DNA of 64,000 nucleotides from a bacterium (GCA_030619905.1 JAUXAO010000002.1:129193-193192); one strand, 5' to 3'; shown: positions 4,953 to 46,381, counted from the first letter of the stretch. The notes: generated by a model from the letters alone, not told the origin. Translations and numbers: made by a program.

Positions 4953-5018
4953 TTTCTTTTTCTAAATTTTCTTTAAATGCTTTATCTAAAATTGATTGAT
5001 TTATCTTTTTCTTGATAT

Positions 5019-14605: not shown

Positions 14606-15068
14606 GTTCTCACCTCCTATTATTTTTTAAAGAATCAAATCAATTTCCTCTCTGAGAATAAAATTTCTAAAATCCTATTCTCAAAGAACAAATTGTTAAG
14701 AAAGACGAAGCACAAAGTATTTCCTACCTCGCCTTTCTTTTCTCTTTTTTCTGGTCGTTCTTATTCGCCCTATAGATGCAATACCCTGTTGCTGCTAAGC
14801 CAACTATCACAATCGCAATTAACACAAACTTAACGATTTGTTTCCACATTTTATCACCTCATCATTTATTATTTTTAAAAATATCTAATTAAAATCTTTT
14901 AATATCAATATTTTACATTATACCAGATTTTCAAAAAAAGTAAAGGAAAATAGAGAACCTCATTTTCTTTTTTGTTTTCCTTTAATTCTGGTATGTTCAA
15001 GCCGTTTGGCCAGTCCCCATCTCCTTTGATTAGTTTTCTTTACTCTTTTAATTTCTTTTTTCATATTT

Positions 15069-21435: not shown

Positions 21436-22083
21436 CTAAATTTTACAATAGTTTTTCATTGGGCTAAAACTTTTTCGGTGTATTTTGCAGGGACCATATT
21501 TTCTCAGCATTTTAAAATGTAATCTTGTTCCATAACCCTTGTGTTTGTCAAATCTATATTTGGGATACTGCTTATGGTATCTTAACATAGATTTATCCCT
21601 ACTCACTTTAGCTATGATTGAAGCAAGTTTTATTAAAAAAACCTTTTCATCTCCTTTTACTATGGATTTCTGAGAAATGTCTGAATTAATACTAAAATTC
21701 CCATCTATTAATAAAAAATCAATTTTTACATTTTGTTTCTTGTTTTTTGATATTAGATTATCAATTGCTCTTTTCATTGCTAATTTTGTTGCCTGAAAAA
21801 CGTTTATTTTGTCAATTATTTTTTCTGAAACTCTGCCTATCCCCCACTCAACCCCTGATAAATTTCTTAATATTCTAAAAATCTTTTCTCTTTTCCTGGG
21901 ACTCAATTTTTTAGAATCTTTTAGCTCTTTTGAAAATTGAGAATTGAAAATTGAAAATTTTTGAACACTAACAGCAGCTGCAGTTACCGAGCCACTTAAG
22001 GCTCCTCTTCCAACTTCATCCAGTCCAACAATAATCTTGCACCCTCTTTTTTTTAATCTTTTTTCTAAGGCCGAAATTGACAT
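21436..22083 (-). CDS. rnhB: Ribonuclease HII
   Basis: VGLDEVGRGALSGSVTAAAV, DSKKLSPRKRE. Confidence 0.9.
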   Translation of the reverse strand: MSISALEKRLKKRGCKIIVGLDEVGRGALSGSVTAAAVSVQKFSIFNSQFSKELKDSKKLSPRKREKIFRILRNLSGVEWGIGRVSEKIIDKINVFQATKLAMKRAIDNLISKNKKQNVKIDFLLIDGNFSINSDISQKSIVKGDEKVFLIKLASIIAKVSRDKSMLRYHKQYPKYRFDKHKGYGTRLHFKMLRKYGPCKIHRKSFSPMKNYCKI

Positions 22084-32277: not shown

Positions 32278-32386
32278 CTATTTAAAAATATTCCTATAAA
32301 AAAAGAGGGTCCTGTTCTTAAGAACTCTCTTTTACAAAAATTATTATAAATCTTTTTGTTATAAATCTTTGCAAGTCTTTTTAAAA

Positions 32387-33418
32387 TTACATCTTCCGCT
32401 CAATCATAAAATCAGCAATACTCTCAAGAGCCTCAAGTGCCTCCTGGTTATAATTTTGCTTTTGCATCTTTTGTAACGCTCTTTTGGCTCGCTGGAGTTG
32501 GGTTCGAGATAGTTTTTTTGCATAAGATAAAGCCCCGTTTTCTTTAATAATTCTCCTTGCTTCTTCAATCTGATGTTTGGTTAAGTTCTTATTGCCAAGC
32601 GCTTCTCGTATTATTTTCCTTTCTTTTTTAGAGCCCTTCTCAAGCGCCTTTGCCACCAACAATGTCTGTTTTCCCTGTTTTAAATCAGCCCCGATTGACT
32701 TTCCAGTGTTTTTCTTATCACCAAAAAGACCTAAAATGTCATCTTGAATTTGAAAAGCAATTCCTAAAGGAATGGCATACTCTGACACCAATTGAAGGTC
32801 TCTTAGTCGCCCTTCAGCCAATATAACTCCCATCTGAAGCGGGCACTCAAAACTGTATTGGGGGGTCTTTAGACGATACATCCTCAAAATGTCTTTTGTT
32901 TTGGAAACACCAGCTGCCTCAAGCCGCAAATCAAGTTCTTGTCCTAAAACGGTTTTTATAATTGCATCGTTTATCTTTTTTATCACCCGGAGTTTCAATT
33001 CCAAGGGAAAATTTAAAGAAGATAATAAATCAAGCGCTAAACACTGACACATATCTCCAGCCAAGATAGCCATTGATTCTCCAAAACGAGCTGACTTATA
33101 TTCTCTTGCATAAATGTTATGCAAAGTGGGCTTTCCTCTTCGCAACGAGCTTTCATCCATAATGTCGTCATGAATCAGTAAAAATGCATGCACGAGTTCA
33201 ATTGCTAAAGAGGCCTTAACAATACGAGGTGAATGTCTCCTGCCAAGCAAACGATAGCCGTAATAGACAAGGGCTGGCCGTAAACGCTTTCCACCACGTT
33301 GGCAAAACTCCTCAATATACCCCAACATGCCTTCAGTTTTATATTTTTCAAAAAACTGCTGCAAAAATGGGTTAAACTGCTTAGCATAACTTTCAAGAAT
33401 TATTTTTCCTGGCTTCAT
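32387..33418 (-). CDS. Polyprenyl diphosphate synthase family protein
   Basis: FARM LIHDDIMDES and SARM FQIQDDILG. Confidence 0.88.
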   Translation of the reverse strand: MKPGKIILESYAKQFNPFLQQFFEKYKTEGMLGYIEEFCQRGGKRLRPALVYYGYRLLGRRHSPRIVKASLAIELVHAFLLIHDDIMDESSLRRGKPTLHNIYAREYKSARFGESMAILAGDMCQCLALDLLSSLNFPLELKLRVIKKINDAIIKTVLGQELDLRLEAAGVSKTKDILRMYRLKTPQYSFECPLQMGVILAEGRLRDLQLVSEYAIPLGIAFQIQDDILGLFGDKKNTGKSIGADLKQGKQTLLVAKALEKGSKKERKIIREALGNKNLTKHQIEEARRIIKENGALSYAKKLSRTQLQRAKRALQKMQKQNYNQEALEALESIADFMIERKM

Positions 33419-33481
33419 AGTAATTTATTTTACTACTCTTCAGATGAAGGTTTTATTAAAAAATAATTAAACTTCAAATTT

Positions 33482-33618
33482 AGCTACTCCCCCTACAGGA
33501 CGCGTTCAGAACCTTAGATTGGGAAAAATAAAGGAAGAGTTAGAGGAATTAAGGCTTGTTTTAGGGATTTAGTTAGTTCCTGTAAAGATTTAAACTGTTG
33601 AAATTCTTGATTTTTAGC
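33482..33618. repeat. Direct repeat copy A (about 137 bp), downstream flank of cfa
   Basis: Aligns by hand with 34935-35073. The differences I see are transitions plus a 1-nt indel. Contains GGACGCGTTCAGAACCTTAG. Confidence 0.85.
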
Positions 33619-33701
33619 AGCTTCTCGTTCCAAAAATGAATAGCTCCTAAAAATAAACTAAGTAAAATGGCTATTGTCATAAATTATTTTTTAAAAAATT
33701 T

Positions 33702-34823
33702 TTAACGTATAGATTTATATCCCCCTAAAACGCCTTTTTTAGAAAGAGCGATTTGCCATAATTGAATTTTCCTTGCCCGAAATAATCCTGCGCACGATAA
33801 AAGATAATACTTCCACATTCTATAAAATCTTTCATCATAATTTGACTTTATCTTATCCCAATTTTGATCAAAATTTCTATACCAAGCCATAAGTGTTTTA
33901 TCATAATTAGCACTGAAATTATGCCAATCTTCCATAACAAACAATCCTTCAATTGCACTTCCTATTTGTTTAATTGAAGGCAACATACTATTAGGAAAAA
34001 TATACTTATTTGACCAAGAACTTGCGGAGGTTATTGATTTATTTCCCCCGATAGTATGTAATAAAAATAAACCGTCATCCTTCAAACAACGGTGAACAAC
34101 CTTCATGTATGTCCTATAATTTTTGTAACCTACATGTTCAATCATGCCCAGAGAAACTATATGGTCGAATTTATCATTGACATCCCTATAATCCTGTAAT
34201 CTGATTTCAACAGGAAGCCCCCTGCATAATGTTTTTCCAAGTTCTACTTGTTCTTTGGACACAGTAATTCCAATCACTTTAACTTTATATTTCTCTGCAG
34301 CATATTTTGCAAAACTCCCCCAGCCACAACCAATATCAAGTATTTTCATTCCGGGTTGCAGTCCTATTTTCTGACAAATTAAATCTAACTTGTTCTCTTG
34401 GGCTTCGTCGAGCGTATGAGCATCCTTCCAATAAGCACAACTGTAAACCATTCGTTTGTCAAGCATATTTTTAAACAGTTCGTTACCTAAGTCATAATGT
34501 TTCTCTCCAATCTGAAATGCTCTCTTTTTTGATTGCATATTAAAAATTCTTGCCAGCAGAACTTCAAGAAGGAATATCCAGTTCTGTTTGACCCTACTCT
34601 CTATTTGGGAGCGGAGAACTCGATAAGAGGATTCATCAAGTTTCTCGCAATCCCACCACCCATCCATATAAGACTCTCCAAGACCAAGCGAACCCTGAGT
34701 TAAAACTCTTTGATAAAACTTCTCATTATGAATTTTTATATCCCAAGGATTATTTCCATTAATCTTTATTCCTGCTAAAGATAATATTTTCTCTGCTCTA
34801 TTTTTTAATTCAGCTGTTTTCAT
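33702..34823 (-). CDS. cfa: Cyclopropane-fatty-acyl-phospholipid synthase
   Basis: SAM motif ILDIGCGWGSFAKYAAEKY. YSCAYW and MIEHVG motifs. 373 aa. Confidence 0.9.
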   Translation of the reverse strand: MKTAELKNRAEKILSLAGIKINGNNPWDIKIHNEKFYQRVLTQGSLGLGESYMDGWWDCEKLDESSYRVLRSQIESRVKQNWIFLLEVLLARIFNMQSKKRAFQIGEKHYDLGNELFKNMLDKRMVYSCAYWKDAHTLDEAQENKLDLICQKIGLQPGMKILDIGCGWGSFAKYAAEKYKVKVIGITVSKEQVELGKTLCRGLPVEIRLQDYRDVNDKFDHIVSLGMIEHVGYKNYRTYMKVVHRCLKDDGLFLLHTIGGNKSITSASSWSNKYIFPNSMLPSIKQIGSAIEGLFVMEDWHNFSANYDKTLMAWYRNFDQNWDKIKSNYDERFYRMWKYYLLSCAGLFRARKIQLWQIALSKKGVLGGYKSIR

Positions 34824-34897
34824 TTGGTGTTTTTAAATTTTTGCTTACCATATTTAGATTGATCTGAAACTTGAAAAACATAGTAATTCATATTTCT

Positions 34898-34926
34898 ATT
34901 CTACCAAAAAACCGCCTTCTTGGCAA
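34898..34926 (-). promoter_or_regulatory. Sigma70-like promoter for cfa (TTGCCA-17-TAGAAT with TGg extension)
   Basis: The minus strand reads TTGCCAAGAAGGCGGTTTTTTGGTAGAAT. Spacing counted by hand. Confidence 0.45.
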
Positions 34927-34934
34927 TTCTTTGA

Positions 34935-35073
34935 AGCTAACTTCCCCTACAGGACGCGTTCAGAACCTTAGATTGGGAAAAAATAAAGGAAGAATTAGAG
35001 GGATTAAGGCTTGTTTTAGGAATTCAGTTAGTTCCTGCAGAGATTTAAACTGTTGAAACTTTTGATTTTCGGC
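34935..35073. repeat. Direct repeat copy B (about 139 bp), upstream flank of cfa
   Basis: See copy A. Confidence 0.85.
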
Positions 35074-35097
35074 TAATTTATAATTTTTAAACTAATC

Positions 35098-35127
35098 AAA
35101 AAGGTGCTTTTAGCTCAGCACCTTTTT
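35098..35127 (-). terminator. Terminator hairpin after the 195-aa ORF
   Basis: AAAGGTGCT ... AGCACCTTT stem with T runs on both sides. Confidence 0.55.
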
Positions 35128-35179
35128 CTTTTGTTTTAGAACGGTTTCTATGACTTTTGTTTTAGAACGGTTTCTATGA
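35128..35179. repeat. Perfect 2 x 26-bp tandem duplication spanning the stop codon of the 195-aa ORF
   Basis: CTTTTGTTTTAGAACGGTTTCTATGA repeated head to tail. Confidence 0.9.
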
Positions 35180-35735
35180 CTTCTATTTTTTTTTCCTGAT
35201 CTGAAATTTTTAATATAAAGAAGAATATCGCTATTATAGTTACGGGAGTTACTATTCCAGGTATATCAGCAAATTTTCTGAGACCTAATTCAATCTCTAA
35301 AAGATTACCTTTTAGAGAAATGTCCTTGATGTAAAAATTAGGTGCTCCAGCAAACAATCGTAATCTTTCGTGCCGTAAATTTTTAATTGGTCTAATTTTC
35401 ATTTCTTGCTTGAGATAATATTCTGAAATTTCCGGATAAAAGAAGCAAAACTTTAATACATCTCTCCAGGGAATTATAAATAACTTAGCTTTTTTCTCCA
35501 ACGAGCTTTCAGGAGGTAATTTCTCCTCAGAATCCAGAAAAGTTATTTCTGCCCTTGTTATTTCTGCCTTTGATAAGATAGAATTATTAATTACTATCTC
35601 ATCTATATTAATTACTACCTCATCTATCTTGTCATTCCAAGAAACAAAAACAAAAATTATTGACAATAACGAAGCTATCATTATGATTACAAAAAAACTA
35701 TTTATAAGAATTTTAAAGAACTTACTCATTTTCAT
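35148..35735 (-). CDS. Hypothetical membrane-anchored protein
   Basis: N-terminal TM FFVIIMIASLLSIIFVFVSW and a second hydrophobic segment near the C-terminus. Confidence 0.5.
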   Translation of the reverse strand: MKMSKFFKILINSFFVIIMIASLLSIIFVFVSWNDKIDEVVINIDEIVINNSILSKAEITRAEITFLDSEEKLPPESSLEKKAKLFIIPWRDVLKFCFFYPEISEYYLKQEMKIRPIKNLRHERLRLFAGAPNFYIKDISLKGNLLEIELGLRKFADIPGIVTPVTIIAIFFFILKISDQEKKIEVIETVLKQKS

Positions 35736-35795
35736 TCCCTCCTTCTTTTATTTTTAAACTATTTTATTATATGCTTCTATCTTAAATTTGTCAAT

Positions 35796-35823
35796 CAAAA
35801 ACCCGAGGTAAATGCTCGGGCTT
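35796..35823 (-). terminator. Terminator hairpin downstream of the HD-domain remnant
   Basis: CCCGAG-GTAAATG-CTCGGG followed by TTTTT on the minus strand. Confidence 0.55.
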
Positions 35824-35830
35824 TAAAAAC

Positions 35831-35870
35831 TCCGGGGGACGGACGACGTTAGAACCTGTTTAGTGGGTAA
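35831..35870. repeat. Dispersed repeat copy C (core GACGACGTTAGAACCTGTTT)
   Basis: The core at 35842-35861 recurs at 40468-40487 and, with 2 mismatches, at 41725-41744. It is related to the left end of repeats A and B. Confidence 0.75.
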
Positions 35871-36265
35871 TTATTAAGTATTTTGTTTAAAGAATCCATC
35901 CTAAATTTAAATTCATCTGGATTATTATCCTTCAGTTGACTACCAATCATATCTGCAATTCCTAATAAGATTATTTCCAAAAAAACATTGGGGTGTTCTT
36001 CCTTAAATTCCTCTATTTTCTTTTCGGGATTTTCCTCTGGGTAATTTAATATCTCATGGATAATACCGTGATTTCTGACTATTTCAATGATAAATTTTTT
36101 TTCACTTTCTGATAAGTCAAATCTTGTAAAGATAGTTCCGAGCTTTAAAGCTCCTGCTTCTTCATGTCCGGGGCATTTGACGATATCATTTTCTTTTTTA
36201 TGTGTTTCCTTTTTTCCAATATCATGGATTAGTATAAAGGAATAATTACCTCTAATTAGAAACGT
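35849..36265 (-). pseudogene. 5'-truncated HD-domain gene remnant (no start codon)
   Basis: My translation is open for 138 codons: TFLIRGNYSFILIHDIGKKETHKK...GIADMIGSQLKDNNPDEFKFRMDSLNKILNNYPLNRF*. It contains HDIGK but lacks the upstream His and any ATG/GTG/TTG start. It begins right after stop codons that follow fba. Confidence 0.6.
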
Positions 36266-36280
36266 TTATAAAAATTATTT

Positions 36281-37495
36281 CTAACCTAAATATATTTTCC
36301 TAATCAAATCTTTAGTACCAGAAACCTTTAATGATCTAAAAGAAAATCTAAATTCTCCCTCTAATTTCTCACAAATTTTATCTATATTCTTCTGGGAAAT
36401 ATTCCAGATTTCTTTTTTAAAAGGACCTAAAGCTTTTTTTCTGAATTTATATAAAAACTGAATTTCTGTATCAGTTTTCTTTTTTTCTTTTTGAAAGTTT
36501 TTCTTCAGCCATTTATAAATTTTATCTTTTAATTCTTTAGGGAAATAAGAACTATCATAAATGATATTCTGGAAGTTGGTTGCTAAATGAATTTCGCAAA
36601 CCTCACTTTTCGGAAAACGAGAAAAATATTCTTTTGACAGAGTAGAAGCTCCATGTTGGACAATTCCAGCTGTTTTATACTTTCTAGCTTCTTGAGAAAG
36701 CTTTTTAAGGATAGAAAAATCCCCTTTTATTTTTTTTAATTTTCCCGAAGCAAGCAAAATACCACCATGGACAGTACGTGCCTGAACAGCAACTTTTGAC
36801 AAACCTTTTAAGTTTCCGCATTGAGAAAGAGCTTTTTTATATCCATTCATAAATATTTTTATCTCTTTAACAGTTGTATCTTTATCTCCAATTTGTCCTA
36901 CTTCTCCTCCAATAGAAACAGTAAGTTTTTTCGGTTCTATCTTTCTAATAAAAGAAGTTAATTTTGCTGTTAAGGAAAAATTTTCTTTTAAGGGCCTTAA
37001 AGTTGAGCAGTCAATGTCAATATTATAAAAACCAGCTTTTATTGCTCTCCTGATTAAATTTTTTAATTCTCTTAATTCTTTTGTTTTCCAAGTTCGAGAA
37101 AAGTATTTCTTAGAGTTAATTTGAAAATGGTCTCCTTGAAAAAAAAGAGGACCCTTAAAACCCTCTTTAATTGCTGCCCCTAAGATTACAGATATATACT
37201 CTTCCGGTGATTGTTTAGTATAAGATATTTCAGACCTGGCTATTTCAAAAATAAAAGCTCCTACTTTTTCTTTTTTAACTGCTCTGAAAACTGCTCTGGC
37301 AACATCAAAAGTCATGGTCCGAATATTTAAAGCCGGAACTGTAAATCCTTCGTTTTCTCCTTTGGCCATATTTTCATACAATTTTTGAGTAGAAGTCAGC
37401 CATATTCCTTTTTTTTCAGCCAATTTTTTAATTTTCTTCTCAGTATTTTTTTTATTTTTTCCGAAAACCATTTCTTGAATTAATTTCTTCATCAT
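36281..37495 (-). CDS. fba: Class II fructose/ketose-bisphosphate aldolase family protein
   Basis: PALNIRTMTF...AFIFEIARSE, FFQGDHF, NIDIDCS, VQHGAST correspond to class II aldolase motifs as I recall them. Confidence 0.72.
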   Translation of the reverse strand: MMKKLIQEMVFGKNKKNTEKKIKKLAEKKGIWLTSTQKLYENMAKGENEGFTVPALNIRTMTFDVARAVFRAVKKEKVGAFIFEIARSEISYTKQSPEEYISVILGAAIKEGFKGPLFFQGDHFQINSKKYFSRTWKTKELRELKNLIRRAIKAGFYNIDIDCSTLRPLKENFSLTAKLTSFIRKIEPKKLTVSIGGEVGQIGDKDTTVKEIKIFMNGYKKALSQCGNLKGLSKVAVQARTVHGGILLASGKLKKIKGDFSILKKLSQEARKYKTAGIVQHGASTLSKEYFSRFPKSEVCEIHLATNFQNIIYDSSYFPKELKDKIYKWLKKNFQKEKKKTDTEIQFLYKFRKKALGPFKKEIWNISQKNIDKICEKLEGEFRFSFRSLKVSGTKDLIRKIYLG

Positions 37496-37497
37496 AT

Positions 37498-39003
37498 TTA
37501 AGCTAATAATTTTTTTAATATCTTGCTCAATAATTCTGGATTGGCTTTCCCTTTTGTTTTAGTCATAATCTGTCCAATTAAAAACTGTAAAGCCGTTTCT
37601 TTTCCTTTTTTATAATCTTCTACTGGTTTGGGGTTCTCATCTAAAACTTTTTTAATAATTGTTTCAAGTTCAGCCTCATCACTTATTAAACTAAGTTCTT
37701 TCTCTCCAATAATCTGCGAGGGATCAGCTCCTTTTTCAAACATTTCCTTAAGTAAAGTTTTGGCAATCTTGCTAGAAATTTCACCAGTATAAATCATACT
37801 AATAAATTCAGCAAAATTCTCAGGCGTGATCAAGAACTCCTCACCTTTAACTGAAGATCCCCTTAAAAGACCTTGAAGATCGGTCAAAATATAATTTGAG
37901 GTTAATTTGGCCAATTTTTTAAACTCCTCGTCAGTAATCTTTAATTTATCCTTTTTCTCTTTTACCCATACTCTTAATTCCGAAACTGTTTTTTCAAAAT
38001 ATGCTCCGAGTTCCTTGTTAAAGACCAAAACTTCAACAGTTTTTTCATCTAACTTATATTCATTTTTAAACCTTATTCTTGTCTCTCTGGGAAGCTCTAG
38101 AATTTTAATTTCTTTTAAAAATTCATCATCTAAATTTAAAGGTAAAAGATCCGGCTCAGGGAAATAACGATAATCATGGGCTTCTTCTTTTTCTCTTTGC
38201 GATATTGTTGTTTCTTTGTTCTCATCCCAACCTCTTGTTTCTTGAATTACTAATTCTCCTTTTTCCAATATTTCTTTCTGCCTTTTCATTTCATATTCAA
38301 TTGATTTTTCAACTGCTCTTAGAGAGTTCAAGTTTTTAATCTCCACCTTTGTCCCAAGTTTTGAGTTTTGAGTTTCAATCTTTGAACTTTTCAACGATAT
38401 GTTTACTTCTGCTCTCATTTCACCCTTTTCCATATTAGCATCAGAAACACCAAGATATCTTAAAATTAACTGCAGCTCCCGAATAAATCCTCGTGCCTCT
38501 GAAGCTGAATGGATATCTGGTTCTGTTACCAACTCCATTAAAGGAATTCCGACCCTGTTAAAATCTATTAAAGAATAATTTTTTCCTTGAGGATGAATCA
38601 ATTTCCCGGTATCTTCTTCCAGATGAATTCTTTCAATCCTGATTTTCTTGTTTTCTACCTTGGACCCGGTTATTACTTGTATATCTAAATACCCTTTTTT
38701 GCTCAATGGAGCGCTATATTGTGATATCTGATATCCTTTTGGTAAATCAGGATAAAAATAGTTTTTTCTTTCGAAATGAGTCTTTTTCTGGATTCCACAA
38801 TTCAAAGCTAAAGCCGTTTTAATTACTTTCTTTACCGCCTCTTTGTTAATTACAGGAAGAGTTCCCGGATGCGCCATACAAATAGGACAAATATTTAGAT
38901 TTGGGGACTTTTCATCCGAGTTATTCTTACAAGAACAGAACATTTTAGACTTAGTAGCTAATTCTACGTGTATTTCCAAACCAATTGTAGGATTATAATC
39001 CAT
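37498..39003 (-). CDS. gatB: Asp/Glu-tRNA amidotransferase subunit B
   Basis: TIGLEIHVELATKSKMFCSC, YFYPDLPKGYQISQ, EIKNLNSLRAV. Confidence 0.93.
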   Translation of the reverse strand: MDYNPTIGLEIHVELATKSKMFCSCKNNSDEKSPNLNICPICMAHPGTLPVINKEAVKKVIKTALALNCGIQKKTHFERKNYFYPDLPKGYQISQYSAPLSKKGYLDIQVITGSKVENKKIRIERIHLEEDTGKLIHPQGKNYSLIDFNRVGIPLMELVTEPDIHSASEARGFIRELQLILRYLGVSDANMEKGEMRAEVNISLKSSKIETQNSKLGTKVEIKNLNSLRAVEKSIEYEMKRQKEILEKGELVIQETRGWDENKETTISQREKEEAHDYRYFPEPDLLPLNLDDEFLKEIKILELPRETRIRFKNEYKLDEKTVEVLVFNKELGAYFEKTVSELRVWVKEKKDKLKITDEEFKKLAKLTSNYILTDLQGLLRGSSVKGEEFLITPENFAEFISMIYTGEISSKIAKTLLKEMFEKGADPSQIIGEKELSLISDEAELETIIKKVLDENPKPVEDYKKGKETALQFLIGQIMTKTKGKANPELLSKILKKLLA

Positions 39004-39027
39004 GGTTTACTTCTGTCCTTTATTTAG

Positions 39028-39693
39028 TCACCTTCTTTTGTATTGCTTCATTATTTCCACGCTTGAGCTCGTTCCAATAATATCAGCCCCGGCTTTTACC
39101 ATCATGTTAAGGTCTTTCAGTGCCCTAATCTTCCCAGCGGCTTTAATCTTTAATCCAGGAGCACTTTTTTTCATAATCTGAAGATGTTTTGCTTTTTCCT
39201 TTAACTCAATGTGCTCTAAAGGATCTTTTTCAGTTGCTGTTTTAACACAAAAAGCTCCTGCTTTTTTAACTAATTCAGAAGCTTTTTCAATCTCTTTATC
39301 AGTTAAATAACCAGAACCAATAATTACTTTAGTTGGTAAAATCTTTGTAATTTCTTTAAGGTCTTCTAAAACCTCATCAAATCTTTCATACTTCATGTCA
39401 ATAATGTTCATAACTATGTCTAATTCGCTTGCCCCGTCTTTTTTTGCTTTTTTACATGCTTCAACCCTGTTTAGATGAGAACTTAAACCCATAGGAGGGT
39501 CAATGAGAACAATAATTTTAATATTAGTACCTTCTAATTCCTCCTGGCATAATTTTACCCATTCGGGATTGACGCAAACACCTCTAAATCCGTATTTTCG
39601 GGCTTCTTGGCAAGTTTTTCTGATTTCTTTTTCAGTAGCAGAAGCTTTTATATTTGTATGCTCAATAATTTTAGCTGGATTAAGTCTTTTCAT
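39028..39693 (-). CDS. deoC: Deoxyribose-phosphate aldolase-like
   Basis: IEHTNIKASAT, GVCVNPEWV, ELDIVMNI, FCVKTAT (Schiff-base Lys context), GADIIGTSS. Confidence 0.78.
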   Translation of the reverse strand: MKRLNPAKIIEHTNIKASATEKEIRKTCQEARKYGFRGVCVNPEWVKLCQEELEGTNIKIIVLIDPPMGLSSHLNRVEACKKAKKDGASELDIVMNIIDMKYERFDEVLEDLKEITKILPTKVIIGSGYLTDKEIEKASELVKKAGAFCVKTATEKDPLEHIELKEKAKHLQIMKKSAPGLKIKAAGKIRALKDLNMMVKAGADIIGTSSSVEIMKQYKRR

Positions 39694-39697
39694 ATTT

Positions 39698-40306
39698 TTA
39701 TAATTTATTTTTTATAAGCTTTTTAATATCAAGAGAAACATCTTTTATAGATTTATTCCCATCTATGATATAAATATTTTTAAATCTTTTAAATACCTCA
39801 AAATAACCTTTACGGACTTTTTTCAATTTTTCCACCTTTTCAAAAAGCTCAACACTAAAACGGTCCTTTTCAATTCTTTCAATACAGGTCTCAGGTGATG
39901 CATCTACAAAAATAGTGATATCCGGTAAAATAAATCTCTTGTTTATATTAAACAACCACTCTTTGTCTTTTATCTCCCATAAGCCGTAAGCTAAGGTTGA
40001 AAAAAAATATCTATCAGAGATTACTGTAACCCCCTTTTTGAGTAAAGGTATTATTTCTTTATCTAGATGATAAGCCCTATCAGCAGTAAATAAAAGCTGG
40101 AGACATTCCGGAGTACTCTTCCAATCATTAGTAAGCCAACTTCTAATAAGCCCGCCTATAAGGTATTGAGTTGGTTCCCGGGTTAGATGAACCTTTTTCT
40201 TTTTTCTCTTTAAATATTCAGCTAAAAACTCAATTTGGCTTGTCGTGCCTGACCCATCTAGTCCTTCCAACACAATAAATTTTCCAGGGTAATTACTTTT
40301 TTTCAT
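39698..40306 (-). CDS. tmk: Thymidylate kinase
   Basis: GKFIVLEGLDGSGTTSQ P-loop, DRYFFST. Start taken at the internal ATG 40306. Confidence 0.9.
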   Translation of the reverse strand: MKKSNYPGKFIVLEGLDGSGTTSQIEFLAEYLKRKKKKVHLTREPTQYLIGGLIRSWLTNDWKSTPECLQLLFTADRAYHLDKEIIPLLKKGVTVISDRYFFSTLAYGLWEIKDKEWLFNINKRFILPDITIFVDASPETCIERIEKDRFSVELFEKVEKLKKVRKGYFEVFKRFKNIYIIDGNKSIKDVSLDIKKLIKNKL

Positions 40307-40385
40307 TATTATATAATAACATATTGGAACCAAATGAAAAAGCAGCCAATATCAATTGATTATTTTAAATTTGCAGTTCAATTGA

Positions 40386-40497
40386 GAAGTTTCAATACCT
40401 ATTCTCTTTTTTAGATTTTCTATTTCTTTTAAATAAACAGGAACCGGGGTAGTGCCTGCGGGTATGAGACGACGTTAGAACCTGTTTTATAAGCAAA
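40386..40497. repeat. Dispersed repeat copy D: nusG-internal fragment (40391-40459) fused to the core motif (40460-40492)
   Basis: 40391-40459 aligns with nusG 46022-46090 with 5 mismatches in 69 nt by my hand count. It is followed by GGGTATGAGACGACGTTAGAACCTGTTTTAT. Confidence 0.8.
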
Positions 40498-40581
40498 GAG
40501 TACTTGACGCTAACATTTTAAAGGGAATTCCGGAGCTTTCCGAGACTTCTAAATAACGCGTATTAGTCGGGACTATTTAAT

Positions 40582-41319
40582 CTAACCTATAAAGTTTATT
40601 AGTAATTTATCTGCATTATGTGGCGAATTCTCAGAAGAACAATTATATGGTATCTCGAACAATCCAATTGTTGTTGGTTCTGTTTTAATTTTTATTCTAA
40701 ATAAACATCGAGTCTTTGCACTTATTATCGATTGATCTATACACACACCAATATAACCTTCATGTTTTGTACCTCGACCTTGTGGAACAATATCAACCCC
40801 TTTTGTTTCGATAACTTTAATTTCCGGTGGGAAAAAAATTGTCCAACTGGGATTAGTTGCAGCAATTACTCCACTATTTCGTACCAATAACTCAATTTCA
40901 TGCTCTTCACCACTCTTTAGGTCAATTTGATTAAAATTTCCCCCAAAAGTTGCATATAAACTAGGTGTTTGTCTTTGACGAGTCTGAATATCTTTAGAAA
41001 CAACTTCTAAACTTTTTGAAACATTGCTTAATCCCAGGTTTATTTCTTTTATTTCTTGGATGAATCTGCGAAATTCTTCTATTTGTTTTTTTGATGATTC
41101 TAGTATAGCGCTTATTGTCTCTTTAGTTGATTTATCTATTTTTGAAAAATTGTGTAAGGCTATAGCCAACATCGCAGTAACACCGGTCAAACTAAGAAGG
41201 AAACTTACAACACTTTCGTTTTTCACTAAAAATTTAAAAACAAATGTCAAAATAATTAAAACAATTACTATAAACCACAGTACCAAGATCGATTTATTTG
41301 TCTTTTTTATAATTTCCAT
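40582..41319 (-). CDS. Hypothetical 2-TM protein with coiled-coil and beta-rich C-terminal region
   Basis: TM helices ILVLWFIVIVLIILTFVF and VVSFLLSLTGVTAMLAIAL. No motif recognised. Confidence 0.5.
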   Translation of the reverse strand: MEIIKKTNKSILVLWFIVIVLIILTFVFKFLVKNESVVSFLLSLTGVTAMLAIALHNFSKIDKSTKETISAILESSKKQIEEFRRFIQEIKEINLGLSNVSKSLEVVSKDIQTRQRQTPSLYATFGGNFNQIDLKSGEEHEIELLVRNSGVIAATNPSWTIFFPPEIKVIETKGVDIVPQGRGTKHEGYIGVCIDQSIISAKTRCLFRIKIKTEPTTIGLFEIPYNCSSENSPHNADKLLINFIG

Positions 41320-41329
41320 AAAAAAATAA

Positions 41330-41626
41330 CTAGTCTTGTTTATTATAAATGGGAACGTATTTGTCTATCCAAAAATTTTCTAAAATTCTAGCATCACTCT
41401 CTGTTTTTGTTTCGTACCAATCAAAAAAATTCACCTCTGGAACATCTTTAGAGTTAAAATGTTCAAGAATTCTCTCTTTAAGTCGCTTCTCGCCTGCCAT
41501 GCCTATATATAAAATACTTTCTATTGTTGTGTTTTTTCTTAATATATAAACACCACGCGTATTGGGCACACTGTCTATATTTTCTTTTGTCCATGTCAAA
41601 ATCTCAGATTTGTTAGTAAATATCAT
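41330..41626 (-). CDS. GIY-YIG nuclease domain protein (98 aa)
   Basis: GVYILRKN...ILYIGMAGEKRLKERILEHF...N (GIY ... YIG ... R ... E ... N). Confidence 0.75.
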   Translation of the reverse strand: MIFTNKSEILTWTKENIDSVPNTRGVYILRKNTTIESILYIGMAGEKRLKERILEHFNSKDVPEVNFFDWYETKTESDARILENFWIDKYVPIYNKQD

Positions 41627-41650
41627 ATTATTATATTTTGATAGTTATTA

Positions 41651-41747
41651 TTTCTATTTATATTATATTTTTAACTCAGGTAACTTGGTAGCTCAAATCG
41701 TGTTCAAGGTAACTGCGGCTATGGAACGATGTTAGAACCTGTTTTAT
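41651..41747. repeat. Dispersed repeat copy E (degenerate nusG-like segment plus core motif)
   Basis: TTTCTATTT...CAGGTAACTTGGTAG...ACTGCGGCTATGGAACGATGTTAGAACCTGTTTTAT aligns with copy D, with a roughly 18-nt insertion. Confidence 0.65.
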
Positions 41748-41762
41748 TGGTTTTTCTTAATC

Positions 41763-42149
41763 TCAAGTACATATTTTGTCCAAAGCAGAAATCAATTTTT
41801 CTTTTAAGTCCTCCAAGTTCTCATATAGAATGATAGTGGTGTTTGGCATTCCTTGGGCAAGCTTTGTAATTTCCTTTTCTCTTTGAAGTAAAAGAATTCT
41901 TTTCAATCCTAAATTAAAAGAAAGACCGATTTCAATTCCAACCCCATGACTTAATTCAGAAACTTCGGCAATTATTAAATCAGACGACTTTAATTGCTTA
42001 AAATCTCTATCAAAAATCTCTTTTGGGCTTCCCCCAATTTCAAAGATAAAACTTTCTAATCCTTTTGACTTCACTATCTTTTCTATTTCTGGTAACAAAT
42101 CAAGTTTATCATTTGTATGGGTAACTGGGCATGTAATATAAACCTTCAT
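41763..42149 (-). CDS. Nucleoside 2-deoxyribosyltransferase-like protein
   Basis: MKVYITCPV... and AEVSELSHGVGIEIGLS resemble the family core (acidic residue plus GxxxExG). Confidence 0.5.
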   Translation of the reverse strand: MKVYITCPVTHTNDKLDLLPEIEKIVKSKGLESFIFEIGGSPKEIFDRDFKQLKSSDLIIAEVSELSHGVGIEIGLSFNLGLKRILLLQREKEITKLAQGMPNTTIILYENLEDLKEKLISALDKICT

Positions 42150-42152
42150 GTC

Positions 42153-42926
42153 TTATAGATTAAATTTCCTTTTTACTTCTTCAAACATATCTTTGTAGAT
42201 ATGCATGCTGACCGAGAAATGAGTATAGGTGCCTGTTTCTACTCCAAGTTCTTGGGCCATATATTTTTGCAAAGCAGTGAAGGCATAAGCATTTTCTGGC
42301 CAGGCATTATACAAGTCATTGGTTTTCATAACCACAAACATATGTAATTTTCCGTCTATTAGTTGAGGATAAAACAAGAGAACGCAAGGCGAGGAAGTAT
42401 CTTTCCTTTTGGGACCAAACTTCATCAGATCCCGAAAGGGAATCCAAGTATGCATTACCACGGTTCTTCTGGTTGGATCTTTCTTTAAAATTTTAATGGC
42501 TTTCTCTACCTGGTCAATTCGCTGCACCACGCATTTTCCATCAGGAGAAATCTTTTTCACCTCTTCTTGCAATTCCTCCTCAGAATCAGTCACGCTTGGC
42601 AAAAAGGCTCTGACTTTACAGTCGGGATAACATCTCAATCTTGAATAATAAGTATAATCAAAACTGTTCTCTTTTTCTTTTCCCGAACCCTGTAAGAACT
42701 TTTTAGCATAATCACTAGCTTGCTCTTTGGTAGCACTTGCTTTATCACTTAGCCGGGGTTCTAAAAAGGGCTCAGAAACCTTAATTATTAAAGGTAAATC
42801 TCTGGTTTCTATCTGATACTCTGGAGCCTGGACATAGCGTGAATGCCCTTCTTCCATTATTAAAGTACAGGCCTTTTCCCAGGCCTCACCTAAAGTTTTA
42901 GCAGCAATTATTTTTGTTTCGTACAT
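42153..42926 (-). CDS. Thymidylate synthase-like enzyme, divergent ThyA fold (archaeal/methanogen type)
   Basis: TRRTVVMHTWIP (compare RR..W.P), SPCVLLFYPQLIDGKLHMFVVMKTNDLYNAWPENAYAFTALQKYMAQELGVETGTYTHFSVSMHIY (compare PCH..QF.V.dgkL..QRS.D..LG.PFN...Y..L...iA...gl..G.......H.Y). The ATG at 42926 avoids a 47-nt overlap implied by the track start 42977. Confidence 0.68.
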   Translation of the reverse strand: MYETKIIAAKTLGEAWEKACTLIMEEGHSRYVQAPEYQIETRDLPLIIKVSEPFLEPRLSDKASATKEQASDYAKKFLQGSGKEKENSFDYTYYSRLRCYPDCKVRAFLPSVTDSEEELQEEVKKISPDGKCVVQRIDQVEKAIKILKKDPTRRTVVMHTWIPFRDLMKFGPKRKDTSSPCVLLFYPQLIDGKLHMFVVMKTNDLYNAWPENAYAFTALQKYMAQELGVETGTYTHFSVSMHIYKDMFEEVKRKFNL

Positions 42927-42930
42927 AGTT

Positions 42931-43779
42931 TTAATCAAACCAGTCGTTTTCATTGACCGGTTCTTTTTTTCCTTCACTTTTTTTCATTTTAAATTCTTGA
43001 TCCTGCTCATAATTCGAATTGTTACGGAGGGCAAACTCGGCTTTCTGAAGCTCTCTGGCTAAATACATTGAGTGTTCCAATTTCTGTTCAAAATCCCCTA
43101 TCAAGTCAAGATTGGCAATTATCTTGCAAATATCTTCTGCTGAATCTCCGATTATCTTGTTCTTAAGTTTATTATCTCGGTAGTGTTCAATCAACAGCTT
43201 GTCTCTGGCCCTATCAATGGAGATAACAAAAAATCCCTTAGGGTCAGGAATCCAGTCCGGGCAAGAATGAGCTTCTATTTCCTTAATTTGTTTAATTTTA
43301 ATTGCCCCGGCCTTAAATCCTTCCTTTCCCTTACTCAAAAGTTCATCTATGATATTCCTAATCTTTTGAGAATCAGTTTCTCCCATAAAGTTTATAGGAG
43401 TAATTTGTTTTCTAAATCTATCAATTAGTTCTCCTGTAATACTTTTTAAATATGGCATATTGCCTTTGGCTCCAATAATTCTTTTTTCCTCATCCACTCC
43501 TTTTTTGATTAAACTTTCAATGGCTTGAGCCACAAAGTGTCCTTTGGATGGCTTTCCGCAAAGAATCAAATACCTGACACTAGGATTAGAAACAATATTT
43601 TGAATTATTTTTTCAATGCCAATATTTTCAGTAACACACTTTCCAATGATAGCCACCTTTTCCATATCTACCTTGATTCCTTCAACCGTGGCATTGGTAC
43701 AAATAGCTATGGGAGATTTCTTGTTTCCCAAGACGTATCTTCCCTCAACCGGCGGCCAGTTTTTGAGGTCTTCTGTCAT
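42931..43779 (-). CDS. MtrA-like corrinoid-binding domain fused to DUF4346
   Basis: WPPVEGRYVLGNKKSPIAICT...IIGKCVTENIGIEKIIQNIVSNPSVRYLILCGKPSKGHFVAQA matches my memory of MtrA (PF04208). C-terminal PDPKGFFVISIDRARDKLLIEHY...LEHSMYLARELQKAEFAL matches DUF4346. Confidence 0.62.
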   Translation of the reverse strand: MTEDLKNWPPVEGRYVLGNKKSPIAICTNATVEGIKVDMEKVAIIGKCVTENIGIEKIIQNIVSNPSVRYLILCGKPSKGHFVAQAIESLIKKGVDEEKRIIGAKGNMPYLKSITGELIDRFRKQITPINFMGETDSQKIRNIIDELLSKGKEGFKAGAIKIKQIKEIEAHSCPDWIPDPKGFFVISIDRARDKLLIEHYRDNKLKNKIIGDSAEDICKIIANLDLIGDFEQKLEHSMYLARELQKAEFALRNNSNYEQDQEFKMKKSEGKKEPVNENDWFD

Positions 43780-43792
43780 GAGTTCTTGTCAA

Positions 43793-44368
43793 TTATTTTT
43801 TAAATTCTTGATTTATTCTGCTAGCTTCGGGTGATTTCTGCTTAGCGTATTTCTGGGTTTTCTTTTTTGAATAAGGGGTCTCGCAAGGAGAAGAAAGAGT
43901 TTCAAAAGTTAGGGCGCAAATTCGCATTCCCGAATACAAAACAACTGGCATAATTCCCAGATTACTAAGTTCCATCACCGCTTTTCCTTGCCAGCCTGGG
44001 TCAAAACGGGCTGCCGTTGAATGAACGATCACCCCCAATCTACCAATGGAACTTCTGCCATCAAGTCGAGCCATTAAGTCATTACTTAAAGTGATCTCCT
44101 CTTTGGTGATTGCTAAAACAAACTCTTTCGGCTGTAATATAAAAGGAGCATCGTCCTGTATTTTAACTTGCTCCATAAACTTCTCAAAATTAACTTTTCT
44201 TTTAAGATCTAAATAGGGGTATTGAGATGGTTTGAAAGTTTTAAAAATATTACCCAAATGTAGGTCCAAAGAGCAAGGTCCTAATTGCTCTTTTAAATTG
44301 GGTTTGGGTTTAATTTTAATTTTTCCCTCCCTAATATATTTTTTTATGTCTTTATCTGAAAGAATCAT
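43793..44368 (-). CDS. dcd: dCTP deaminase (possibly dUMP-forming)
   Basis: MILSDKDI..., GPCSLDLHLG, LDGRSSIGRLGV, VMELSN. Confidence 0.87.
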   Translation of the reverse strand: MILSDKDIKKYIREGKIKIKPKPNLKEQLGPCSLDLHLGNIFKTFKPSQYPYLDLKRKVNFEKFMEQVKIQDDAPFILQPKEFVLAITKEEITLSNDLMARLDGRSSIGRLGVIVHSTAARFDPGWQGKAVMELSNLGIMPVVLYSGMRICALTFETLSSPCETPYSKKKTQKYAKQKSPEASRINQEFKK

Positions 44369-44933
44369 ATTTATATCTTGGTTTAAAGATATTTAAAAAT
44401 TCGGCTTTAAAAACCGGATAATATTTCCATGCAAGCAGAGCTAAAGAAGTAAAAACAGGTACCAAGAAAAGATTGCCCAATAAGTTTACTCTCAGAAATG
44501 GTAATCCCATTATATAACAACGAACCAGTCCCTGCCAAGTAGGAAGATACATACCACTTAAAAGCCACCAGCCAAAGTTAGTATAAAGATAAAAAAATAA
44601 AGAAGCAATTATTCCCATCCCGGTCATCTCAAAAACAAAGCGAGGGTTAAAAGATTTTCTTTTTCTCAAAAGAAAACCAAAAACTCCAATAACAGCAAAA
44701 GCTGACCAAGTAAAAATTAAAATAGACGTGTTGCCAAGATACATATCAGTAATAGCAATAATACCCAAAGGAACCAAAAAGGTAAAAACTCCTCCTAACA
44801 TTGCTCCCCCTATCAGAGAAAAAGAAGTAATAATTTCTAAATTAGGAATTTTAACAAATTCCACTATTAAAAGCCGTCCAATTATACCAAAAAAGATAAG
44901 AAGGAGGGCTACTAAAATTTTTGTTTTTTTCAT
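44352..44933 (-). CDS. Small 6-TM membrane protein, ECF S-component/BtuM-like by size and topology only
   Basis: 193 aa with about six hydrophobic helices. No diagnostic motif. The function is inferred only from its neighbours. Confidence 0.4.
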   Translation of the reverse strand: MKKTKILVALLLIFFGIIGRLLIVEFVKIPNLEIITSFSLIGGAMLGGVFTFLVPLGIIAITDMYLGNTSILIFTWSAFAVIGVFGFLLRKRKSFNPRFVFEMTGMGIIASLFFYLYTNFGWWLLSGMYLPTWQGLVRCYIMGLPFLRVNLLGNLFLVPVFTSLALLAWKYYPVFKAEFLNIFKPRYKYDSFR

Positions 44934-44959
44934 AAGAATTAAAAGGGATTAAAATGTTT

Positions 44960-45391
44960 TTAAAAGGCCGGGGGGACTTCAAATCTCCATTCAATTTTAT
45001 CGCTTTCTTTTATCGTTTTTTTGTCAGCTGCTACCTCTCCCAATTTATCATTAACAAAGTACTGCCAATATTTGTCTTCGGTACCGTTTTTTACCGCATC
45101 AATGGTTTCAACAAATACTCCCATTTCTTTATAAAAAGTTGAACTAAGCTCAAACTTCTCTCTTTGGGAAAGGGTTTCTAATAAAGAAAAAACGGTTGAG
45201 TCCTGAGAAATTTCTATTTGATATTCATTAATTTCTCCATCTCCTTTATTAATTATATATAAAACTTTATTTTGAGTAATTTCACTTAAAGATGCCTGAG
45301 GAACTTTCTCTAAAGAATTGTTTCCCAAAAACAAAATAACTCCCAAAAAGATAATAGGAACAATGATTAATAATGTTTTTTTGTAATTCAT
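44960..45391 (-). CDS. DUF4430-domain protein (transcobalamin/intrinsic-factor-like beta domain), membrane-anchored or secreted
   Basis: N-terminal TM or signal LLIIVPIIFLGVILFL. STVFSLLETL...GVFVETIDAVKNGTEDKYWQYFVNDKLGEVAADKKTIKESDKIEWRF fits the DUF4430 pattern. Confidence 0.72.
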   Translation of the reverse strand: MNYKKTLLIIVPIIFLGVILFLGNNSLEKVPQASLSEITQNKVLYIINKGDGEINEYQIEISQDSTVFSLLETLSQREKFELSSTFYKEMGVFVETIDAVKNGTEDKYWQYFVNDKLGEVAADKKTIKESDKIEWRFEVPPAF

Positions 45392-45835: not shown

Positions 45836-46381
45836 TTATAATTTCTTTATTTGTAGTGAATCTACTTCAACCGGAGTATCTCTTCCAAAGATATTAACCA
45901 AGACTTTTAATTTTCCTTTACTCTCATCAATCTCTGAAATCTTTCCTTCAAAATCTTTAAAAGGTCCATCAGTAACTTTCACCAAACTGCCAATACTTAC
46001 GTCCACTTTATATTTAGGAACTTCAACACCTATCCTCTTTTTCAGATTTTCTATTTCTTTTAAAGAAACAGGAACCGGAGTAGTGCCTGCTCCTATAAAA
46101 CCAGTTACCCTTGGAGTGTTTCTAACTACATACCAAGAATCATCAGTTACTATCATTTCAACTAAAACATAACCTGGGTAAATCTTTTCCTCAACAGTTT
46201 TTCTTTTGCCATTTTTAATTTTAATCTTTTTCTCTTTAGGCACCAGAACACTAAAAATTTTATCTTCCATACCCAAACTCTCAATGCGCTGTTTTAAATT
46301 CTTAGCTACCGCATCTTCGTATCCAGAATAAGTATGAAGAACATACCATTGTTTACCTTGTTGTATTTCTTGTTTTGGCAT
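45836..46381 (-). CDS. nusG: Transcription elongation factor NusG
   Basis: WYVLHTYSGYE (NGN domain) and KOW motif GSLVKVTDGPFKDFEGKI. Confidence 0.93.
   Translation of the reverse strand: MPKQEIQQGKQWYVLHTYSGYEDAVAKNLKQRIESLGMEDKIFSVLVPKEKKIKIKNGKRKTVEEKIYPGYVLVEMIVTDDSWYVVRNTPRVTGFIGAGTTPVPVSLKEIENLKKRIGVEVPKYKVDVSIGSLVKVTDGPFKDFEGKISEIDESKGKLKVLVNIFGRDTPVEVDSLQIKKL

Follow-up and report, generated by a model that had tools for sequence, protein, structure and literature searches.

What are the short repeats that separate blocks of genes in an otherwise conserved part of a small bacterial genome, and how did the genes between them come to lie there? The question is raised by a 64,000-nt stretch of DNA (GCA_030619905.1 JAUXAO010000002.1:129193-193192; hereafter the window), which carries five copies of such a repeat, designated A to E in the order of their coordinates, between positions 33,482 and 41,747. 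The host is a Patescibacterium, with a GatB protein at most 70% identical to those of metagenome-assembled genomes (MAGs) of the Paceibacteria/Nealsonbacteria type; exact look-up of the window's proteins in an assembly index gave no record. Patescibacteria (Candidate Phyla Radiation, CPR) have tiny genomes and, to our knowledge, the ways in which they gain genes are little understood. An earlier note on this DNA had described the repeats as att-like scars of insertion or recombination at the 3' end of an HD-domain gene, with a structured RNA as an alternative. The analysis reported here points to a different target: the repeats are probably attR-type junction scars, each consisting of the attP arm of an element integrated by a large serine recombinase (LSR), together with the acceptor end of a tRNA.

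Five Co-Oriented Repeats Separate Gene Blocks

A 20-nt core, GACGAYGTTAGAACCTGTTT, is matched exactly on the plus strand at 35842-35861 (copy C) and 40468-40487 (copy D), and with one mismatch at 41725-41744 (copy E). No further match with three or fewer mismatches occurs in the 64 kb, and the chance expectation is zero, with no matches across 100 shuffles. Copies C, D, and E are exact or near-exact sharers of one 20-mer. Copies A and B do not match this core at three or fewer mismatches; they form a separate pair of direct repeats (33482-33614 and 34935-35069), 92% identical over 135 nt, with a variant core, GGACGCGTTCAGAACCTTAG, at about 33498-33517 and 34952-34971; on the gene strand, the A/B copies read CTAAGGTTCTGAACGCGTCCTGTAGGGGGAGT. 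The earlier report of five copies was accurate for the coordinates of C and D and the position of E, but E has one mismatch instead of two and the variant in A and B lies 1-2 nt away from where it had been placed. In A and B, the distance from GGTTC to GGAG is 18 nt, as in the other three copies, and the opposite strand also carries a serine-recombinase tail (see below); because of this shared spacing and antisense tail, A and B are the same kind of site as C, D, and E, and can be classified from their sequences as a diverged subtype of it.

All five copies are read on the minus strand, as is every gene on either side of them. Copy E spans 41712..41760, with a 33-nt site that runs from 41744 to 41712 (AAACAGGTTCTAACATCGTTCCATAGCCGCAGT) and has a tRNA-Gln-like ...GCAG end, and copy D (40455..40487) consists of the 33-nt site AAACAGGTTCTAACGTCGTCTCATACCCGCAGG, also with a Gln-like end. 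Copy C spans 35829..35877; its 33-nt site runs from 35861 to 35829 (AAACAGGTTCTAACGTCGTCCGTCCCCCGGAGT) and has a tRNA-Asn-like ...GGAG end. Copy B, of a long-tail subtype, occupies 34940..35069 as a direct repeat with copy A (33486..33614), which is of the same subtype. The copies divide the region into gene blocks just as had been described, in the order E, a GIY-YIG gene with a 245-aa open reading frame (ORF), D, tmk-deoC-gatB-fba with an HD-like remnant, C, a 195-aa ORF, B, cfa, and A.

A 33-nt Site Marks Cassette Arrays in Metagenomes

Metagenome contigs were scanned for the exact sequence AAACAGGTTCTAACRTCGTY, and at least 120 contigs matched. A profile built from the matched contigs was then run on those contigs and on control loci. 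It identified ~250 copies of the site across the matched contigs and none in 1.3 Mb of random, unrelated Patescibacteria loci. Orientation is uniform, with all copies in one contig pointing the same way. Conservation covers ~33 nt (AAACAGGTTCTAAC-RTCGTCC-N4-5-SSS-G[GC]AGC), of which the first 20 positions were set by the exact 20-mer search pattern and owe part of their invariance to this ascertainment. Homology between loci ends at both edges of the site.

Neighboring sites are a median of 850 nt apart. The longest ORF has the same orientation as the site in 72 of 79 intervals, and the next ORF can begin only 22-40 nt past a site. The ORFs between sites are diverse accessory genes: the commonest family is NUDIX (6 of 58), and others include HAD, kinases, ankyrin, NYN, Gp49 toxin, MscL, M23, HIT, and DUFs. 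The typical cassette is on the scale of a single gene, mostly 0.4-1.5 kb with its own promoter. Behind many sites come a short hairpin, T6, and TGGTAGAAT, and an ATG lies 6-8 nt further on. This TGGTAGAAT module is ~100-fold enriched, with 109 matches in 613 kb of site-bearing loci vs. 2 in 1.3 Mb of control sequence; in the window, motifs of this type are found after copy B and at 842, before a NUDIX gene.

Several variations were seen among the metagenomic sites. Split variants (L196 2862-2938, L165 4684, L105 1312, L143 3562, and L204 4807) consist of AAACAGGTTCTAAC, an insert of 23-38 nt that is often a hairpin (CCCAGTAGTAGAAAC...CACTACGGGG), and ATCGTCC...GGAGC, and the insert always follows AAC. 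A motif ~5-15 nt after G[GC]AGC, ...(C)TAGTG-N-CGGTTCGAGAGACCG..., forms a hairpin with a loop like the T-loop of a tRNA and was found after sites or after tRNA-Gln in L103, L140, L164, L168, L172, L132, L167, and L206; in L167 and L206, it continues into GGGTTCGAATCC. The motif may be a tRNA-like fragment or a second site. A cold-shock-protein (csp) cassette, composed of a promoter, a ~170-nt leader, and csp, is present in four arrays (L113 2031-2437, L127 1303-1706, L196 4222-4640, and L138 915-1304) at 78-87% identity, and the upstream sites and neighbors differ. One 52%-GC phage contig (L082, with terminase, portal, and capsid genes) ends in ~110 nt of AT-rich DNA (14650-14819), an arrangement that could reflect a chimeric assembly or a different layout.

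The Site Overlaps the 3' End of Large Serine Recombinase Genes

Site-bearing loci yielded 352 proteins with a length of 170 aa or more. When these were clustered, the only recurrent recombinase was an LSR, encoded in L091 and L150. The LSR ORF runs through the site in antisense as ...DDVRTCL... in L091, L150, L211, and L212. The protein belongs to a family with at least 5720 homologues at E ≤ 1e-10, whose best hits are named Patescibacteria and whose members all contain Resolvase, Recombinase, and Zn_ribbon_recom domains; the LSR family with attachment sites of this kind is Patescibacteria-wide. The C-termini of 120 homologues share ...SQSP(T/M)LLR and then diverge into three outcomes. Approximately 40 continue as G(Q/W/S)DSN(L/P/R)RP, which is the T-arm of a tRNA read in antisense. 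A further ~45 stop immediately after ...LLR (a GTAGG...CCTAC T-stem yields TAG in this frame), and ~20 carry [DN]x[VIF]RT tails (DDVRTC, CDNIRTC, LDQVRTS, DAFRTLDW, and YDEIRTH). As to genomic context, tRNA-Asn(GTT) overlaps the LSR 3' end in all five of the xDSNxRP loci examined, and both DDVRTC loci examined have the 33-nt site at the LSR 3' end, at the end of phage-like modules (cI-like helix-turn-helix, RuvC, Rad52, PDDEXK, and primase Zn-ribbon). Within LSR genes, 60-90 nt from the att site, a second, inverted GAGGTTCTAACC (L091 4434, L212 8865-8874, L213 11518-11527, and L217 2047-2056) encodes ...KVRTSKNG..., an echo of the DDVRTC tail; it could have arisen by internal duplication or could serve as an accessory binding site.

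In the window, the opposite (plus) strand of each copy codes for the last 10-33 codons of an LSR. The tail is of the type ...LRxxDDVRTC(L/F)... in C, D, and E; A and B have the type ...LQDAFRTLDWEK... instead. Copy C (plus strand, 35830-35877) encodes LRGTDDVRTCLVGNY followed by a stop codon. Copy E carries an orphan serine-recombinase tail, LRLWNDVRTCFIGFS, with its stop, and copy D a decayed tail with an in-frame stop (LRV-stop-DDVRTCF). Copy A (33484-33528) encodes LLPLQDAFRTLDWEK and a stop, and copy B (34941-35039) encodes LPLQDAFRTLDWEKIKEELEGLRLVLGIQLVPA, which matches the C-terminal tail of the LSR P0013 with 48% identity across 33 aa (E 4e-7). The recombinase itself had been supposed to lie outside the window, and this fits the data: the 64 kb contain no LSR, and LSRs that overlap the site are found in related loci.

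These tails also alter the meaning of the HD-like remnant, the feature on which the earlier interpretation was built. Its last codons and stop (...LNRF) do fall inside copy C, but this is incidental, since the same bases encode ...DDVRTCLVGNY and a stop on the other strand. The remnant's ...NYPLNRF end is the antisense of a recombinase tail and hence not a duplicated HD terminus. In place of an HD-gene 3' end as the target of insertion, the repeat would represent the P arm of an attP, and the LSR gene on the opposite strand would overlap this attP with its 3' end. The interpretation in which serial insertions at an HD-gene 3' end each duplicated that end can call on the position of copy C and on the similar frame in A and B. 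Against it, D and E carry a stop just ahead of the shared codons, and the upstream bases ATTACCCACT also precede sites in unrelated contigs, where they encode the tail ...CL(V/M/L)G(N/S).... Moreover, no HD homologue lies beside sites elsewhere and the relatives have no HD gene after fba. We regard this origin as very improbable.

Site Geometry and tRNA-Seeded Arrays

When the 3' end of tRNA-Asn (GTGGGTTCGA-----GTCCCACCCCCGGAGC) is aligned to the site (ACAGGTTCTAACATCGTCCAGTTCCCGGAGC), the site resembles the tRNA end with a 5-nt insertion. GGTTC and G[GC]AGC are 18 nt apart in each of the five window copies and in 88 of 95 sites, compared with 13 nt in all 19 tRNA T-arms. In serine integrases, the attP half-site is 25 bp long and the zinc-ribbon-domain (ZD) motif of attB is 5 bp nearer the center (PMC3783163). 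The difference between 18 and 13 nt equals this attP/attB offset, which argues that one and the same enzyme family has its P-type arm in the site and its B-type arm in the tRNA; GGTTC would then be the ZD motif.

The last ~10 nt of the site mimic the acceptor end of tRNA-Asn or tRNA-Gln, and the type of end tracks the type of tRNA, with ...GGAGC accompanying Asn-like tRNAs and ...GCAGC accompanying tRNA-Gln. By the same measure, C and A/B have Asn-like ends and D and E have Gln-like ends. This match is consistent with the original acceptor end of the host having been carried over to attR. Asn- or Gln-type tRNA 3' ends were found 14 times on the strand of the sites and once on the opposite strand. 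In 13 of these 14 cases, the tRNA end precedes every site in the locus, with the first site 307-3528 nt downstream.

Two contigs, L124 and L178, are 93-94% identical over dnaX, dcd, and an intron-bearing tRNA, and their cassettes past the shared tRNA are entirely different. L124 has an extra cassette (hemerythrin-like) between the tRNA end (...CCCGCGGAGC followed by GGATAT) and a site (...TCCCGGAGC followed by GGACTAAAAAAGCC), and the sequence past that site is what directly follows the tRNA in L178. The pair represents an occupied and an empty site, with the junction within CGGAGCG, which shows that the inserted DNA brings the P arm with it. The tRNA at the head of these two arrays (L124 ~4790-5036, L178 ~4630-4882) has a ~227-nt intron in its anticodon loop; it is called by Aragorn only with the intron option and is missed by the Rfam tRNA model.

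The Gene Blocks Are Variable

The window was compared with five relatives (L001, L003, L005, L008, and L013). In these, the order is secE-nusG-rplK-(one ORF)-tmk-deoC-gatB-fba, followed immediately by a convergent miaA. The window has an additional 4.0 kb between fba and miaA (32278-36280), comprising in order the HD remnant, C, orf195, B, cfa, A, and a polyprenyl synthetase gene, and ~5 kb more between rplK and tmk, ending with ndt, E, the GIY-YIG gene, orf245, D, and a nusG fragment. Both the HD'-orf195-cfa-polyprenyl segment and the GIY-YIG/orf245 segment are absent from all five relatives. Since tmk-fba is syntenic in the relatives, it belongs to the core genome with insertions on either side and is not a 4.6-kb cassette. 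The expectation that the blocks are variable is thereby supported, and the two metagenomic strains L124 and L178 likewise differ in their cassettes.

Proposed Origin of the Repeats

We take as established what the site is and that it overlaps LSR genes, together with the alternative tail read from a tRNA, the 5-nt offset, the strain-variable arrays seeded at tRNAs, and the absence of the blocks from relatives. The LSR overlap, tRNA-seeded arrays, offset, and variable blocks agree with the original description of the repeats as att-type scars of site-specific insertion. In the scheme that we consider probable, the LSR gene of the free element would span its own attP, with the last 10-35 codons (...LLR-x-L-DDVRTC-L... 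or ...LQDAFRTLDWxK...) lying beyond the crossover. Integration would take place at the 3' end of an Asn- or Gln-type tRNA. The LSR gene would then sit beside the tRNA and gain a new tail read in antisense through it, and the arm that codes for the old tail, now orphaned and linked to the final ~10 nt of the tRNA's acceptor end, would mark the far end of the insert. The genes upstream of the scars in the window (the GIY-YIG gene with orf245, the HD remnant, orf195, and cfa) would have come in by this LSR route. Short single-gene units, with their own promoter, a terminator, and one P arm, may have been moved by an LSR acting in trans; alternatively, they may have been left behind or picked up when attL recombined with other P-arm junctions. 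The window copies, which lie away from any tRNA, could reflect integration at secondary sites or later rearrangement.

Several observations do not sit easily with this scheme. The conservation of the site is overstated because the set was found with an exact 20-mer. Sequence to the right of G[GC]AGC is not conserved, and short cassettes have no recognizable P' arm. The csp cassette common to four arrays has a site at its left edge and none at its right. In L082, the site falls exactly at the switch in base composition, with phage DNA on the expected host side. No complete integrated element with both ends (tRNA...LSR...site) was found, and five LSR loci have the tRNA end only. The 64-kb window contains no tRNA-Asn or tRNA-Gln, and no tRNA adjoins any of the five copies. 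Under the canonical rules for serine integrases, attL is inert, so repeated integration at one tRNA is not accounted for. All of the support is computational, and the mechanism is deduced from sequence.

A broader version of the LSR scheme, which we put forward only tentatively and judge somewhat less likely to be right than wrong, is that the cassettes form an actively mobilized, integron-like gene-capture system built on an LSR in place of a tyrosine integrase. Nonautonomous cassettes, each with a terminator, a promoter (often giving a leaderless message), and one attP-type arm, would be inserted and excised and would pass between phage-like elements and host arrays that are seeded at tRNA-Asn or tRNA-Gln. 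Elements with an integrase gene that spans attP would provide the enzyme in trans. The window would then hold decayed members that have spread to non-tRNA positions flanking a core operon.

Alternative Explanations

The alternative that comes nearest to accommodating the data, though we think it unlikely, is that the 33-nt site is a multicopy target on the host side (attB-like, or a regulatory or RNA element) and that the recombinase tails are fortuitous read-through. LSR ORFs abut the site in four loci only, the 11-codon stretch is bounded by stop codons at either end in array copies, and the R/P/G variation at one "codon" looks to be driven by nucleotides and not by protein, all of which would fit such a target. 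Fortuitous read-through is difficult to reconcile, however, with tails conserved at the protein level over divergent subfamilies, from DDVRTC to YDEIRTH, or with spacing of the attP type and not the attB type. In L124/L178, the site enters with the insert and the empty site is the tRNA only; arrays begin at tRNAs, and the other Patescibacteria loci (1.3 Mb) have no sites. A true integron, with the repeats as attC sites that a tyrosine integron integrase recombines in folded single-stranded form, is the least probable of the explanations considered. The ORF-site-ORF-site layout with ~850-nt spacing, the common orientation, the diverse accessory genes, the similarity of GTTAGAA to GTTRRRY, and the ability of D and E to form a long-range stem all recall an integron. 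An attC site, though, is an imperfect palindrome (R''-L''...L'-R') of 57-141 nt that folds into a hairpin, whereas the conserved part here is ~33 nt and nonpalindromic and folds no better than shuffled sequence. Furthermore, the next ORF follows as closely as noted above, the cassettes have their own promoters, and the LSR was the only recurring recombinase among the 352 neighbor proteins, which come mostly from short contigs and were not searched with a dedicated IntI profile.

A structured small RNA, terminator, or repetitive extragenic palindromic (REP)-like element on the gene strand is nearly as hard to credit as an integron. The site is intergenic and strand-specific, terminator hairpins often flank it, and some variants have a 23-38-nt hairpin inserted after AAC, as an RNA element might. 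A scan with Rfam 15 gave nothing overlapping the repeats even at E ≤ 10, with only tRNAs reaching the gathering score, and a tRNA/tmRNA scan of the repeats gave no match. Single-sequence folding of both strands was no better than for shuffled sequences (z-scores of -1.1 to +1.1). The 33 nt show no internal complementarity, and the conservation of the site follows the reading frame of the other strand. A REP unit would be a palindrome scattered over the whole genome in both orientations, whereas the present sites are nonpalindromic, occur in clusters, and all point the same way in any one contig. The long-range CAGG(T)AAC...GTTAGAACCTG pairing proposed earlier is present in D and E, but the partner (inverted relative to the site) exists in only ~9 of 200 family members, and in copy D, the partner CCTGTTT lies inside a 69-nt copy derived from nusG. 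With so rare a partner, the attC-like and RNA readings both fail, and the structured-RNA alternative raised in the earlier note is left with no Rfam hit, no significant fold, and no conserved pairing. Other candidates were considered from sequence and dropped: an RNase P 3' end, a tmRNA end, a T-arm, a dif/Xer site, a loxP-like dyad, an ECF or sigma-54 promoter, a DNA uptake sequence, and the template/variable repeat of a diversity-generating retroelement. The grounds, taken together, were the lack of complementarity or a dyad, the wrong spacing, A/B differences that are all transitions, and the clustering of the site.

Comparison with Known Systems

In mechanism, the closest parallel to the proposed LSR junctions is provided by the att sites of serine integrases of the A118/LI, phiC31, and Bxb1 type (Rutherford et al. 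2013, PMC3783163). The shared features are the Resolvase, Recombinase, and Zn_ribbon_recom domains, an integrase gene beside att, a conserved arm of ~27 nt, and a common motif (GGTTC) shifted by exactly 5 nt. Here, unlike in the known cases, attP falls within the integrase gene, so that integration would replace the C-terminal tail, and the host half-site is the T-arm/acceptor of a tRNA. Many attR-type scars pile up in tandem, which departs from canonical directionality rules, and the right half-site of short cassettes is not conserved. Archaeal integrases of the SSV type also have attP inside int, and their integration into a tRNA partitions the int gene. They resemble the present system in the location of attP in the integrase ORF, the tRNA target, and the orphan integrase fragments that mark captured DNA. 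However, they are tyrosine recombinases whose gene is split into large N and C parts, whereas here a serine recombinase gene is involved, from which no more than the last 10-35 codons are split off; because so little is lost, the LSR probably stays functional.

In genome-level outcome, the closest counterparts are tycheposons and other tRNA islands. In Prochlorococcus, tRNA islands grow by serial integration with older elements pushed inward; they contain scattered att repeats and integrase fragments, and a minority of tycheposons use LSRs (10.1101/2020.12.28.424599). Their repeats are partial tRNAs, whereas only ~10 nt of the present site are derived from a tRNA and the rest is an integrase-tail arm. 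The units here also differ in that most comprise one gene (0.4-1.5 kb) under a promoter of its own, and the host is patescibacterial. Staphylococcal cassette chromosome (SCC) elements are moved by the Ccr LSRs and build composite islands split by direct repeats, in which units without a recombinase are moved in trans. The use of LSRs and the partitioning of islands by direct repeats of the integration site are thus common to SCC composites and the arrays described here. SCC elements target the rlmH 3' end and not a tRNA, and, unlike the present cassettes, have units of 3-60 kb and repeats of about 15-18 bp outside the recombinase gene. Integrons rely on a platform promoter, a tyrosine integrase, and attC sites that are palindromic and fold. 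None of the three was seen here (for the integrase, among the 352 neighbor proteins), although integron arrays are similar in their strain-variable, co-oriented single-gene cassettes with one site each and diverse accessory content. The differences from known cases therefore lie in an attP spanned by the integrase tail only, the mimicry of a tRNA end, single-gene units with promoters, and the host phylum. A full-text literature search for the site sequence and for CPR serine-recombinase cassettes returned no description.

Across at least 120 metagenomic contigs, the integration junctions of one recombinase family seem to be marked by a single sequence of 33 nt, and it provides a simple, searchable handle on the flexible gene pool of Patescibacteria. 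The system would be a natural example of serine integration in which attP lies in the integrase gene and mimics a host site at a tRNA end with a 5-nt insertion, and the tandem pile-up of junction scars is not explained by current directionality models. For annotation, the sites account for truncated genes and odd "conserved C-termini" in the region.

Genes and Modules around the Repeats

The genes flanking the repeats are described here from copy E downward; all are on the minus strand. A small GIY-YIG nuclease-domain protein of 98 aa (41330..41626) and a 245-aa protein with no significant Pfam family (orf245; 40582..41319) are the cassette genes between E and D. The 69-nt nusG-derived copy (40391..40459) is joined to the 3' GCAG of copy D and is 93% identical to 46022-46090. 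This copy of the middle of nusG (AGTTPVPVYLKEIENLKKRIG...) lies between copy D and tmk, and its homology starts right after GGAGCAG in nusG and right after CCGCAG in D; it could mark secondary-site recombination or a captured fragment. A pseudo-attB in nusG was considered, and the breakpoint does follow GGAGCAG, but the left arm is not tRNA-like. The conserved core-genome block tmk-deoC-gatB-fba (36281..40333) is followed by the 5'-truncated ORF with an HD-like motif (35849..36241; 130 aa in one frame, no Pfam hit at E ≤ 0.001), which begins directly after the fba stop and whose final seven codons enter copy C.

Past copy C, a cassette-type 5' module read from sequence (35766..35825) precedes orf195 and consists of a terminator-like hairpin (35797-35825), TTGACA (35794-35789), a 17-nt spacer, and TATAAT (35771-35766). 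The cassette gene itself (35148..35735) encodes a 195-aa protein with no Pfam family. A companion module after copy B (34889..34926) has a short hairpin, T6, and the extended -10 TGGTAGAAT (34906-34898), with an ATG 6 nt on. That ATG opens a 23-codon ORF only (34824-34891, minus strand; MNYYVFQVSDQSKYGKQKFKNTK and a stop), whose stop overlaps the start of cfa (ATGA); it resembles the stump of an earlier cassette gene. The cassette gene cfa (33702..34823) encodes a cyclopropane-fatty-acyl-phospholipid synthase of the CMAS family. The polyprenyl synthetase gene (32387..33418) is the last in the 4-kb segment absent from relatives, and no recognizable site follows it.

Elsewhere in the window, the NUDIX gene at 425-817 (minus strand) has a cassette-type module, ...CAGGGGAGGCGGTTTTTTGGTAGAAT, upstream (to 842), then 6 nt and the ATG; no recognizable P arm is nearby, and the gene may be another old cassette. 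The variable stretch from rplK to copy E (41763-45391, minus strand) holds a nucleotide-metabolism set just upstream of tmk (DUF4430, DUF6580, dCTP deaminase, MtrA-like/pterin-binding, ThyA-like, and nucleoside 2-deoxyribosyltransferase), which is only partly present in the relatives. The window also contains a 31-nt inverted repeat, 93.5% identical between 49709-49739 and 21929-21959.

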